Shown: positions 3,001 through 15,000, counted from the stretch's first letter. The stretch: 64,000 nt of DNA from Escherichia coli (GCF_041248615.1 NZ_CP158427.1); one strand, 5' to 3'. Numbers are program-made.

Positions 3001-6000
3001 CACTGGACTGATTAACGGACGGGGCGGCAATGCCGCCCCTGTAAAGGAGACGAGAACATGTACTGTACTGTTAAAGAAATTATCCGCGAAGTGCTGAACA
3101 CAGACGTGCCGGACAGTGAATGCGTTTTTGCCGTGGTGCTGACCCGTGGGGATGTGCGTCACATAGCCCAGGACTGGAGTCTGACAGACGATGAGCTGGA
3201 AACCGTCATGCAGCGACTGGACGATGCCTTTGCGCATGGTGCGGATGTCAGCATTGTTCACGACGTTGTTCGTGAGCTGATGGAAGAAAAGCGCGCCAGC
3301 CGTCAGGTGACAGTTCCGGCGGTGATGCTGGAAAAAGTGATGGCGCTGGCAGGCAGTGAAATGAAGCGCCTGTATGCCGTCGGGAGCGAGAACGGGGGCG
3401 ACGGTGACGCATTCGTCAGGGAAGAACGCGAAGCAATGGACGTTGTGTTACAGGCGCTGGACGGGGAGCACATGTCATGAATATCAGCACAGAAACCCGC
3501 GAAATTCTGCGCAATTACAAAGCCGTGATTAATGCGCGGCGTCGTGAAATGGGGCAGAAACCGCTCACCACTGCGCAGATTGTTGATGAAATCTGCGATT
3601 TTGTGGCGAATCAGCAGGCTGTATTCCTCGGCGGTCACTACATCCTTCAGGGCAGCATAAACAGGTGATACAGGGGCAGGCGGTGGAGGCCGCCTGTCAG
3701 CCCGCGCGAAAACCCCTGGCAGGCTGACGCCTGCCGGAAGGGAAGCGGGCCACGCTGGCGCGTCGCCCGTTACCCTTCCCGTCTGTGATGTGTCTGACTC
3801 AGGAGTGTTTCTTTCTTATGTTATGGAACTGTTCCTGATGTTGTTGTTCCTTTATCTACTGCTCTGATTCTGACTACTGCAGTGTTGTTCTGTCTGCCGG
3901 GCGCACCTTCGGCTCCCGGCTGCCTGGCGGCATCCGGTCGTCAGGCCCGACTCCGACAGGCAGCTGCTGGCGCACCTGCCAGTCTCCGCCGAACCCGCTG
4001 GCGCGGTTTCGGGCTGCCGCTACGGTCCGATGCGTGAAAACCCCTGGCTTGCAGCGACCGTTCCGGTCGCGCCGCCTCTGTCGCGCCGTGGCCTGCGCTC
4101 CCGGCATCCCGGCAAAAGGCCGCCGGGATGTAAGGGGCAACGCCGTTTCGCGCACGCGCTCTCCGTCGTTGCGGCGGGCCCCTGCTCATTGCCTGCCGGG
4201 TGCCACACACCCGTATGAGTCCCTGTCGCCGGGGGCTGATACAGCCACAACCTGCCGCACTGACTGTCCAGGGTAAATGAACAGCCCACAAAATTTTTTA
4301 CCCAAAACCCGGTAAAAAATTTTGCGTTCTGCCCAGGACAGGTGCGTCAGGCCGTGGCAGTGATGCCCCTTGCGGCGAAGGTTCTCAAACGGGTGAAGTT
4401 CATACCACAGTGAATACAGCAGCAGGTTCCCGCGAAACGTCAAAACCGCGGCTCCCGAAACTCAACGGGTGATGTTCTTTAAAAATCAGGATTTATTTCA
4501 GGCTCCGGCAATACGCATTTATTTGTTCTGTCAGTCATCCGGCTGACAGGTAATGAGAACGCAGGAACAGAAGGAGGAAAACACCGGAAAGCGTCAGATG
4601 CAGATATGAAAAAAGCAGGTCAGGCACCTGCTTAATCCACGCCGTAAGAATTGTGCGACCAATTTTGACGGCATTGTTAACCAATTTGTCATAAGGAATC
4701 CATTTATGACTGTAAGCATTGTTTCACCTTCCGCAGCGGCTGTAAAGCCCCGCCGTCATCCCCGTTTCAGACGCGAAGACATCCCCACGCCGGAAATTGA
4801 CCCCGTGTTGAAAGCCTTCGGGCGACACATAGCCCGGAGTTTTCACCGGGGGCGTGGTGTACACATCCCCGCCATGAAAAACACGGCTTTCGGGCAGGTG
4901 CTCCGCACACTCGAACTGAAACGCGCTTTTAACTGATGAGGTGAGCCGCCCCGCGAGGGGCGGCAACAGACGGAAGGAGAACATTTTATGACATTAGCAG
5001 CAATCACCATGACCGCCCCGGAAGCCGCCAGCCCTGTGCAGATGTACCGCGCGACCTACTCACCGGATGACAACAAACTGCGCCTGTATGCCGTGTCACG
5101 TCTTGACCCGGAGACGTATAAAAAAGTGCATGATGCTGGTTTTCGCTGGGCACCAAAACAGGCGCTGTTTGTCGCGCCAGCCTGGACACCGGGCCGGGAA
5201 GACGTGCTCCTCTCACTTGCCGGAGAGATTGAGGATGAAGACAGCACGCTCGCTGAACGTCAGGAAGCACGGGCGGAGCGGTTTACCGGATACAGCGGAA
5301 AGCGGGCCAGTGAATCCGCACAGGCACTTGATGAAGTGGAAAGACTGGCCGCGATGATCCCGCCCGGTCAGCCCATTCTTGTGGGGCATCACAGCGAACG
5401 CCGCGCCCGTCGTGATGCGCAGCGTATTGAAAACGGCATGAAACGTGCCGTGATGCTCTTTGAACGTGCGGAATACTGGGAAGAGCGGGCGCGGTCGGCA
5501 CTGCTTCACGCGAAGTATAAAGAACGTCCGGACGTTCGCTGGCGTCGTATCAAAAAAATCGAAGCTGATTTGCGCAAGGCTGAAAAGACCATCGCGCAGT
5601 CGCAGAAATATCTGACGATGTGGCGGGCTGAATCGCTGGATCTGAATATGGCAAAACTCATCAGCAGTCATGACCATATCAGCGCCTGTTTCCCGCTGGA
5701 TACGTATCCGCGCCCGGCAGAAAAAAGCCAGTATGAAGGGAGCCGGTCGTTATGGTCGGCCCTGGATGATGACATCATCACCACGGAGCAGGCCCGCGAA
5801 ATTGCGATCCGCTGTCATGAACGGCAGATTCAGCATCAGCAACGCTGGGTTAACCACTATCAGAACCGCCTGATCTATGAGCGTGCCATGCTGGACGAAA
5901 GCGGCGGCGTGGTTACCCGGACACAGGATTTTGAGCCGGGCGGACAGGTTTTCAGCCGGGGCGAGTGGCTGACCATCATCCGCGTGAACAAAAGCAACGG

Positions 6001-12000: not shown

Positions 12001-15000
12001 GTGAAGGTGGTTTGTTGCCGTGTTGTGTGGCAGAAAGAAGATAGCCCCGTAGTAAGTTAATTTTCATTAACCACCACGAGGCATCCCTATGTCTAGTCCA
12101 CATCAGGATAGCCTCTTACCGCGCTTTGCGCAAGGAGAAGAAGGCCATGAAACTACCACGAAGTTCCCTTGTCTGGTGTGTGTTGATCGTGTGTCTCACA
12201 CTGTTGATATTCACTTATCTGACACGAAAATCGCTGTGCGAGATTCGTTACAGAGACGGACACAGGGAGGTGGCGGCTTTCATGGCTTACGAATCCGGTA
12301 AGTAGCAACCTGGAGGCGGGCGCAGGCCCGCCTTTTCAGGACTGATGCTGGTCTGACTACTGAAGCGCCTTTATAAAGGGGCTGCTGGTTCGCCGGTAGC
12401 CCCTTTCTCCTTGCTGATGTTGTACGGGCATGAACAACCTGACTTCAGGAAGGTCGTTTCCCTTCAGGAACGGGGATGAACGCGCGCCTGCGGCGCCCGT
12501 TCTTTTCCCCCGCCTTCTCTGGTTATGGCCTGTCAGAAATCACATCACCTTCCCTGTGATTATTCTCTTTTTCTTCCTGCTCTGATTCTGACTACTGCAG
12601 TGTTGTCCTGTCTGCCGGGCGCACCTTCGGCTCCCGGCTGCCTGGCGGCATCCGGTCGTCAGGCCCGACTCCGACAGGCAGTTGCTGGCGCACCCGCCAG
12701 TCTCCGCCGAACCCGCTGGCGCGGTTTCGGGCTGTCGCTACGGTCCGATGCGTGAAAACCCCGGGCTTGCAGCGACCGTTCCGGTCGCGCCGCCTCTGTC
12801 GCGCCGTGGCCTGCGCTCCAGGCATCCCGGCAAAAAGACGCCGGGATGTAAGGCGCAACGCCGTTTCGCAAACCGCGCTTCACGTCGTTGCGGCGGGTCC
12901 CTGCCCGTTGTTGTGTCCGGTGCCATTCACCTGTTTAAGCCCCTGTCGCCGGGGGCTGATACAGCCACAACCTGCCGCACCTGTCCAGGGTAAATGAACA
13001 GCCCACAAAATTTTTTACCCAAAACCCGGTAAAAAATTTTGCGTTCTGCCCAGGACAGGTGCGTCAGGCCGTGGCAGTGATGCCCCATGCGGCGAAGGTT
13101 CTCAAACAGGTGATGGTGAATACCGGAGGGAACAAAGAGCAGGTCCCCGCAAAACGTCAAAACCGCGGCTCCCGAAACTCAACAGATGATGGGGGCTGAA
13201 AACCAGAGAGAGGAGAAAGCAGGATGAGTACCCGAAATATCCACGTTAACACCGCGTCGTACACGCTTCTTGTTGCCGGGAAGAAAAAAAACACCGGGGA
13301 AGAGTGGGACGTCCTGGAATTCAGCAGCCTGACTGAGCTGAAAAAATATCGCAAAAGCCACCCGGAAAAGATGGCCTTCAGTTATAGCTACGCGCTCAGT
13401 CAGGGTGTGGATAAGCAGTTCCGCCATATCAACATTGCGGAAGTCGATCACTTCAAACAGTTCCTGCGTCAGATTAAGCGTGCCGGCCTCGATATCCGGG
13501 CGATCTGCTGACCGGATGTGATGAATATCTCTCCTGATTGTTGCAATCTTGTTAATGGAGATCGGGGGGGGATGATATTAAGCGGAAAAATTTTTTATTA
13601 AATTTATTCTTTCATAAAGGAGTAGCTGTTATGCGATTAGCTTCCCGTTTTGGTCGGTATAATTCCATCCGCCGTGAACGTCCTTTAACGGATGATGAAT
13701 TAATGCAGTTCGTGCCTTCGGTATTTTCCGGTGATAAACATGAGTCCCGGAGTGAACGTTATACGTATATTCCAACAATCAATATCATCAATAAGTTACG
13801 TGATGAAGGTTTCCAGCCATTCTTTGCCTGTCAGAGTCGGGTTCGTGATTTGGGACGTCGCGAATACAGTAAACATATGTTACGTCTTCGCAGGGAAGGG
13901 CATATTAACGGACAGGAAGTTCCTGAAATTATCCTGCTTAATTCACATGATGGTTCATCCAGTTATCAGATGATCCCCGGAATTTTTCGTTTTGTCTGCA
14001 CAAATGGCCTGGTGTGCGGAAATAATTTTGGCGAAATCCGCGTTCCACATAAAGGTGATATTGTCGGGCAGGTTATCGAGGGAGCGTATGAAGTGCTCGG
14101 TGTCTTTGATAAGGTCACTGATAATATGGAGGCGATGAAAGAAATTCATCTTAACAGTGACGAGCAACATTTATTTGGCAGAGCTGCACTGATGGTCAGG
14201 TATGAAGATGAAAATAAAACGCCAGTGACACCTGAACAGATAATTACTCCCCGTCGTCGGGAAGACAAACAGAACGATCTCTGGACAACCTGGCAGCGGG
14301 TTCAGGAGAATATGATAAAAGGTGGATTATCGGGGCGAAGTGCCTCCGGGAAAAATACCAGGACAAGAGCCATTACAGGTATTGATGGTGATATAAGAAT
14401 CAACAAGGCGTTATGGGTGATTGCCGAACAGTTCAGAAAGTGGAAGTCATGATAATATAAGTAAAGCCCCGAAAAAATTTTCGGGGCTTTACTTATATTA
14501 TCATTTTTCGGCATTGCTGTGTCGTCTGATATACCTCAATTTCATCGACCGGCTTTCCGGTTGTCTGTAAATATTGTGCCCGCGAAAAATGGTCTGGCAG
14601 GAGGCTGCGCAGTTACCGGGTATATATAAGATGGGTTCCCGCTTCGCGGGGCTTCGGCCAGTCAGTATTGTCACTCATATGATATTTTTGTGTGTGGCCT
14701 TCCATGCTGCTTTTGCGGCATAACCGGTATCTGACAATGTCTGTAAGATTAATTATTCTGCACGCTGTTAATTTCCGGAAGTGATTTCTTCGTGGCCGGA
14801 AGCCGGATACCTTTACTGCTTTTTATCCCGGTATAAATCCGGTAAACCTCTGATGCGTAGGCAAGACGTCTCTGGTTCTGGCGTTCGGATTTCCTGAATC
14901 CTGCATTGTATGCACCAACGGCCTCCCAGGTGACGCCCCATTTTTTAAATGCTATTGCCAGATAATAAGCACCGGTATAAATGTTCATGCAGGGATCTGT

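Follow-up and report, generated by a model that had tools for sequence, protein, structure and literature searches.

Frpo is a promoter that folds on single-stranded DNA, recruits RNA polymerase and yields RNA that is also able to prime DNA synthesis (PMC7690428). In the F plasmid, early expression of ygeA, ssb and yfjA in vivo depends on Frpo1 and Frpo2, and deletion of either abolishes the early production of YgeA, Ssb and YfjA in transconjugants; according to the deletion primers, these deletions removed the entire block, including a GC-rich module (PMC9849209). A core fragment of Frpo2 drives a protective anti-CRISPR only from the leading transferred strand (PMC11541004), and the sequence of F ssiD, which was cloned as the original Frpo, is given in supplementary file 4 of the same paper. 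For class-1 promoters, including ssi1-3 of IncI plasmids, transcription starts were mapped by 5' rapid amplification of cDNA ends in early transconjugants (PMC12672017), and IncI leading regions have been described as three operons under ssi1-3. In vivo support for priming by ssp1/Frpo transcripts has also been presented (bioRxiv 10.64898/2026.01.09.698686). It has been documented that 13,089 Frpo homologues occur in 6,006 conjugative elements, and that the classes of single-strand promoters share no BLAST similarity. Here we analysed a stretch of 64,000 nucleotides from Escherichia coli (GCF_041248615.1, NZ_CP158427.1), referred to below as the window, and found that the leading region of its conjugative plasmid carries three direct repeats which are very probably class-1 single-strand promoters of the Frpo/ssi family. 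The element itself is already known, and the division of a leading region by three such repeats has already been published.

The window represents an F-like plasmid of the IncFII type that resembles pEK499. The region was 97-100% identical to this IncFII/IncFIA plasmid, save a group II intron in pEK499. The repeat blocks, in register, each measure about 640 bp and share one orientation:

3848-4489, functional strand minus: repeat copy 1, whole block; over 630 bp it shares 91.7% identity with copy 2 and shows five small indels
7170-7810, minus strand: repeat copy 2, whole block, at the position of F Frpo2; folding energy (dG) -194.7, z -9.8
12566-13206, minus strand: repeat copy 3, whole block, at the position of F Frpo1/ssiD, in synteny with F

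A fourth copy was sought across the whole window and none was found. A first-pass annotation of this DNA had placed three direct repeats at 3864-4475, 7189-7807 and 12582-13203; the repeats were confirmed, and these bounds were slightly too narrow on both sides. It had also reported that copies 2 and 3 differ at one base and that copy 1 is clearly diverged, and both statements agree with the comparison: copies 2 and 3 stand at a constant offset of +5396, their sole mismatch over 7183-7807 (625 bp) is 7286 C/T, and copy 1 shows the divergence listed above. The description of the blocks as GC-rich applies to their left half, with 70-73% GC (3901-4200, 7201-7500 and 12601-12900), but not to the hairpin half, with 52-56% GC.

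We then compared the blocks with the described elements. F ssiD (351 nt) aligned over its full length in all three copies, to 7453-7799 and 12849-13195 at 87.8% and to copy 1 at 4131-4463 with 77.9% identity. The blocks were 84-94% identical to the Frpo1 region (upstream of ygeA) and the Frpo2 region (upstream of ssb) of F, with synteny kept; copy 1 reached 94.2% against the F Frpo2 region, and the core of copy 2 reached 92.7% against F Frpo2. The match to ColIb-P9 ssi1-3 was confined to the upper hairpin, at 76-80% over about 80-115 nt. These alignments, which had been suggested as a check on the Frpo/ssi assignment, favoured it, and so did the orientation of the blocks and a hairpin conserved on the transferred strand. 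A promoter role is supported through homology to experimentally tested elements. The putative promoter corresponds to a core of about 300 nt in each 640-bp block and not to the whole block; the first-pass annotation had read the entire repeats, of about 615 bp by its bounds, as promoters.

The orientation of the blocks follows from the origin of transfer (oriT), where the F nic sequence was found:

15342-15361, minus strand: oriT nic region, TTTGCGTGGGGTGT/GGTGCTTT, the F nic sequence, read from 15361 to 15342, with the cut between 15350 and 15349

The cut position inside TTTGCGTGGGGTGT/GGTGCTTT is one that we take from established knowledge of F TraI. The nic site assigned earlier to 15349/15350 on the minus strand was therefore correct, and the minus strand is the transferred strand, entering 5'-first towards coordinate 1. 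The leading region accordingly comprises the coordinates below 15349, and every gene that it carries on the plus strand has the transferred strand as template, as had been claimed for the genes after the repeats. All three copies sit 2-11.5 kb into the leading region. The Rfam search also matched the traJ 5' untranslated region and FinP at 16156-16265, and sok at 11973-12149. The longest open reading frame (ORF) of an SLT transglycosylase (14749-15396, minus strand) spans nic; by alignment with F, its annotated start lies at about 15351, at nic.

Each copy is followed by an operon on the plus strand, and sequence matches bore out the downstream genes that had been listed for all three copies. 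After copy 1, the operon at 4706-7189 holds an ORF of 76 amino acids, a DUF3560 gene, a class I S-adenosylmethionine (SAM) methyltransferase gene and another ORF of 76 amino acids. After copy 2 come ssb, a DUF905 gene, a ParB-like gene, psiB and psiA; the true start of ssb is ATG 7829 and not the in-frame ATG 7790. Copy 3 precedes an ORF at 13224-13511, in the ygeA position, and a DUF932 gene at 13631-14452, matching the ygeA region of F. The distance from the end of the block to the first start codon was 19-22 nt for copy 2 (to ATG 7829) and 18-21 nt for copy 3 (to ATG 13224), whereas a 217-nt spacer separates copy 1 from its first ORF (ATG 4706). The earlier statement that the repeats lie directly upstream of gene blocks therefore holds, at about 20 nt for copies 2 and 3, with the spacer of copy 1 as a qualification.

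To characterize the core, we folded the transferred strand, as the first-pass annotation had proposed. The hairpin that it had noted in copy 2 at 7611-7644 is real, and represents the A+T-rich tip of a far longer imperfect hairpin:

4154-4452, minus strand: putative core promoter hairpin of copy 1, loop 4303-4310, placed by coordinate mapping
7476-7773, minus strand: putative core promoter hairpin of copy 2, 298 nt with 115 pairs, loop 7624-7631
12872-13169, minus strand: putative core promoter hairpin of copy 3, loop 13020-13027, placed by coordinate mapping

Outward from the loop of the copy 2 hairpin, a 14-bp A+T-rich stem leads to an asymmetric 8-nt bulge in the 3' arm that includes CATTTA; the CCCTGGACAGG block and the 17-nt stretch that come next are both paired, and beyond a mismatch bubble (CTGTATCA versus CATC-ACT) the lower stem adds about 90 pairs. 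We assessed this fold by aligning nine relatives, among them Serratia and insect-metagenome sequences given in PMC11541004. Standard pairs were present in 95.7% of cells and 11 pairs carried changes on both sides, numbers that are flattered by the structure having been drawn from the same alignment on which it was counted. The 11-pair count was reached by 1 of 500 shuffles and the covariation score by none of 500, and slid controls gave 2-5. The strands were also compared: in 12 of 12 relatives the core hairpin was 8-19 kcal/mol more stable on the transferred strand than on its complement, and the transferred strand had more G:T pairs than the complement in 11 relatives and no fewer in the remaining one. 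This strand bias is direct evidence, at the level of sequence, of selection for the fold on the strand entering the recipient. Folding of whole blocks on the minus strand gave a dG of -178.3 (z -9.5) for copy 1, alongside the copy 2 value listed above.

A looser scan, read together with the pair ladder of the hairpin, revealed a conserved bubble with a -35-like hexamer 17 nt away on either side, TGGACA and TTGAGA. The candidate elements are as follows:

7586-7591, minus strand, 3' arm towards the loop: putative -35-like TGGACA; equivalents at 4265-4270 and 12982-12987
7563-7568, minus strand, 3' arm: putative -10-like CTGTAT; equivalents at 4239-4244 and 12959-12964
7704-7709, minus strand, 5' arm towards the base: alternative putative -35-like TTGAGA, invariant in nine of nine relatives

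TGGACA is conserved in eight of the nine relatives and is followed by a 17-nt paired spacer (7585-7569) ending in TGTGG; in copy 1 the spacer is 20 nt, with a 3-nt TCA insertion, as in F Frpo2. CTGTAT, a weak match to TATAAT, sits in the conserved mismatch bubble opposite CATCACT (7680-7686, 5' arm), and the bubble columns TGTG..TGT.T are invariant in the nine-relative alignment. TTGAGA lies 17 nt from CATCAC (7681-7686) in the same bubble and would drive transcription towards the loop. Between the two arrangements, TGGACA/CTGTAT appears somewhat more probable than TTGAGA/CATCAC. The working Frpo2-acrIIA4 construct begins at GTCCCTGTCGCC and is without the partner arm of TTGAGA (PMC11541004, supplementary file 11), which speaks against the latter. 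With TGGACA, the A+T-rich tip would fall at the described position of the UP element, and the helix from TGGACA to the bubble holds 5 of the 11 compensatory pairs, as would suit a paired spacer that is free in sequence. The TGGACA arrangement predicts RNA 5' ends near 7690-7700. Promoter activity has been demonstrated in close relatives; the exact boxes and start sites in this plasmid are putative.

Besides the shared alignment behind the covariation counts, four further points weigh against reading the blocks as promoters of this type. A strict sigma-70 consensus scan of 7100-7900 on both strands gave no promoter; folding of the minus strand yielded the expected hairpin, with its 298 nt and 115 pairs, but canonical -35/-10 elements are not obvious under such a scan. 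The -10 candidates CTGTAT and CATCAC are both weak, and two opposite-facing arrangements share one bubble. The folding energy of the whole block failed to separate the strands (z -9.8 versus -10.7). Finally, copy 1 is the copy whose activity is least certain, because it is more diverged, its lower stem folds less cleanly and it is set apart from its operon by the 217-nt spacer.

Drawing on the homology, orientation, fold, covariation and strand bias that we observed, we propose that the blocks would act during conjugation as follows. The minus strand would enter the recipient 5'-first from the nick at 15349/15350, and on arrival the core of each block, about 300 nt, would fold into the long imperfect hairpin. 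Its stem would mimic a duplex promoter, with a paired -35-like element, a paired spacer and a -10 region kept open by the conserved mismatches, and host sigma-70 RNA polymerase could therefore start without a complementary strand. Transcription would proceed towards the nick with the entering strand as template, giving an early burst of three operons, namely DUF3560/methyltransferase, ssb/ParB-like/psiB/psiA and ygeA-like/DUF932. Synthesis of the complementary strand would then remove the hairpin and turn the promoters off, and the transcripts may also prime that synthesis.

The last step leads to a different emphasis, in which the blocks are chiefly single-strand initiation sites where a short hybridised RNA primes the complementary strand and gene expression is secondary. 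We regard this as possible but clearly the less probable account. According to the summary in PMC7690428, F ssiD was originally isolated as a signal for priming and gave primer RNA in vitro (Masai and Arai 1997), and rifampicin-sensitive early conversion occurs in vivo downstream of ssp1/Frpo sites (bioRxiv 10.64898/2026.01.09.698686); three dispersed copies would also supply three priming points. However, each copy abuts a correctly oriented operon, copies 2 and 3 stop just before the ribosome-binding site, and deletion of Frpo1 or Frpo2 in F abolishes the downstream proteins (PMC9849209). Since the priming and promoter roles are compatible, priming is better seen as an added function of single-strand promoters than as a true alternative to them.

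The GC-rich left half of each block was considered separately. It forms a module of about 300 bp, most of which falls beyond the cloned ssiD and beyond the working Frpo2 core construct:

7170-7475, no strand assigned: upstream GC-rich module of copy 2, 70% GC, with several short hairpins
3848-4153 and 12566-12871, no strand assigned: equivalents of the module in copies 1 and 3

The proximal part of the module (7360-7475, 116 bp) is common to F, IncI plasmids, Citrobacter, Lelliottia and an insect-metagenome element. In place of the distal 190 bp (7170-7359), F and several others carry an unrelated GC-rich sequence, the second form of this part. The IncI-gamma plasmid pSAN1-08-1092 (6001-6420) has, upstream of ssb, a module of the window type at 97% identity joined to an IncI-type ssi core at only 77%, with a recombination breakpoint inside the block near window position 7423. 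In Citrobacter relatives, CAGGAA repeats stand on the transferred strand immediately outside the upstream module. When one genome per species was scanned with a 23-nt motif of the module, only 10 loci came up, some of them on contigs (Streptomyces, gut metagenome-assembled genomes) that are probably contaminants, as they carry enterobacterial plasmid sequence that is almost identical.

The module may be an element of its own, either an insulator or terminator against read-through from the upstream operon, which could act on a single-stranded template, or a roadblock that delays duplex conversion of the adjacent promoter, but we consider this doubtful. Its position largely outside ssiD and its dispensability in the working Frpo2 construct are consistent with a separate element, as are the conservation of its proximal part in Citrobacter, Lelliottia, IncI and metagenomic elements and the two interchangeable forms of its distal part, which are joined to different cores. 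A stem-loop roadblock has been demonstrated at another leading-region promoter, ssp2, but none was reported at the ssp1 sites in F (bioRxiv 10.64898/2026.01.09.698686). The consensus fold of the module in 12 relatives was weak, with only 2 compensatory pairs, a comparison of the strands showed no clear bias, and the high identity between IncF and IncI-gamma modules may simply reflect a recent exchange of the whole neighbouring segment. A roadblock, if true, would keep the adjacent promoter single-stranded for longer.

It is very improbable that the repeats are passive duplication products or mobile-element remnants without a promoter role, or that they encode the annotated small 'hypothetical proteins': the Prokaryotic Genome Annotation Pipeline (PGAP) does place one or two such proteins under the match in many plasmids, and repeats do mediate rearrangements, but it is pairing and not coding that is conserved, thousands of plasmids hold the blocks in a constant orientation and position with respect to nic and to the starts of operons, and close homologues have demonstrated promoter function (PMC9849209).

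Small-protein coding was looked at in the three copies themselves and rejected; the starts and lengths of the ORFs differ among the copies, and one-base indels between copies 1 and 2 break the frames. Directly upstream of the blocks there are tandem hexamers, with CTGCTA x4 before copy 2 (7140-7170), overlapping the end of ORF 6959-7189. An Rfam search found no family for the repeat element, and the hairpin gave only chance-level matches to mir-559 (E = 0.55). Among the matches listed in plasmid databases, the block was present in at least 5000 plasmid records at 14,625 places, about 3 per record, and these records were mostly conjugative plasmids of Escherichia, Klebsiella, Salmonella and Shigella. 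Contigs labelled Streptomyces morookaense, Oscillibacter and Erysipelotrichaceae, gut metagenome-assembled genomes among them, also carry block copies with 89-98% identity. These copies of an enterobacterial plasmid block most likely represent contamination or mis-binning.

The leading region contains further candidate regulatory elements. The intergenic segment 2169-2590 (minus strand), upstream of an antirestriction gene (ArdB/KlcA-like, 2586-3011), forms a long hairpin with a dG of -106.9 and z of -4.55. It resembles the 'Frpo' 4' sequence of Samuel et al., and by synteny with F it occupies the position of ssp2/'Frpo3'. A class-2 single-strand promoter is the probable identity of this segment, whose sequence has no relationship to the three repeats. 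The class-2 and class-3 promoters (ssp2, or 'Frpo3', and ssp3, with hairpins of the klcA/ardB and M.EcoGIX types) showed no homology to the repeats, which within the window match only each other. Since a hairpin of another class lies at about 2169-2590, the claim that the three repeats partition the leading region stands for the presence of three copies, but they are not the sole partitions. In the copy 1 spacer (4490-4711, minus strand), the stretch 4610-4711 matched the Rfam family AS-pc01, antisense to pHK01_035, with 73.1 bits and E = 2.4e-11, just below the gathering score of 79. A minus-strand terminator, GCAGGT-GCCTG-ACCTGC followed by TTTTTT, lies at about 4598-4625. The candidate antisense RNA would need the complementary strand as template and would therefore be made only after duplex conversion, and it might shut off the copy 1 operon.

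The repeats have also taken part in recombination. The first-pass annotation had suggested recent duplication or gene conversion for the near-identity of copies 2 and 3, and gene conversion is a reasonable explanation. The elements at the same positions in F, Frpo1 and Frpo2, are only about 92% identical (PMC9849209; 88-93% in our computation), whereas the window copies differ at one base in 625 bp. F Frpo2 (F plasmid 10175-10622) is a mosaic whose left part follows copy 1 and whose right part follows copy 2; in copy 2 coordinates, its main switch lies between 7691 and 7712, and it has a small copy-2-like patch at 7474-7502. Recombination between repeats therefore appears to have removed from F the DUF3560/methyltransferase module of about 3.3 kb; both repeats and the copy 1 operon, which F is without, are retained in the window. 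A parallel is provided by R1-R3 of pO26-CRL125 and the single hybrid repeat of pO111-CRL115, which are likewise long imperfect direct repeats containing Frpo; the hybrid repeat marks where leading-region genes between the repeats were lost, by the same logic as in the F Frpo2 mosaic, but these plasmids differ in having an IncI-type backbone and an intervening segment of 9.7 kb (PMC3817090). The repeats are recombination substrates that add or remove whole early-gene modules. Group II introns (ltrA) were seen in or beside the repeats as well. One lies between copy 2 and ssb in pEK499 (9642-12360), and another lies at position 54 of the copy 1 upstream module in Klebsiella pneumoniae CP066153 (6659-9000), a breakpoint common to many Klebsiella plasmids.

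Promoters of this kind explain how SOS inhibition, SSB, anti-restriction and methyltransferase functions are expressed minutes after entry, before the second strand is made, and such early expression helps resistance plasmids to establish in new hosts. For annotation, the blocks are of value as regulatory DNA in place of the 'hypothetical proteins' of database records. A third early-expressed unit is predicted for the very common IncFII backbone, namely the DUF3560/methyltransferase operon. The core element is extremely common and known, and the remaining novelty lies in the upstream GC-rich module and in this predicted third early unit of IncFII plasmids.

Compared with the known systems, copy 3 corresponds in position to F Frpo1 (= ssiD, GenBank D90178; Masai and Arai 1997; Couturier et al. 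2023, PMC9849209). Like Frpo1, it lies upstream of ygeA-like and DUF932 genes and adjoins hok/sok, and it shares with it the long hairpin, the A+T-rich tip, the asymmetric CATTT bulge, CCCTGGAC and the mismatch bubble. Unlike Frpo1, the window block has the distal 190-bp GC-rich segment, where F has other sequence. Copy 2 occupies the same position upstream of ssb as F Frpo2 (ssp1b) and has the same end point before the ssb ribosome-binding site. The arrangement as a whole is matched by ssi1-3 of IncI plasmids (ColIb-P9, pESBL, IncI-gamma; Bates et al. 1999; Nasim et al. 2004; Wen et al. 2025, PMC12672017; PMC10104558), which are likewise three dispersed direct repeats within one leading region. 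The two sets share an operon headed by each repeat on the transferred strand, the hairpin design, the conserved tip and the CCCTGGAC motifs, and they differ in the lower stem and in the contents of the operons, which in the IncI plasmids include ardA, psiB and ssb.

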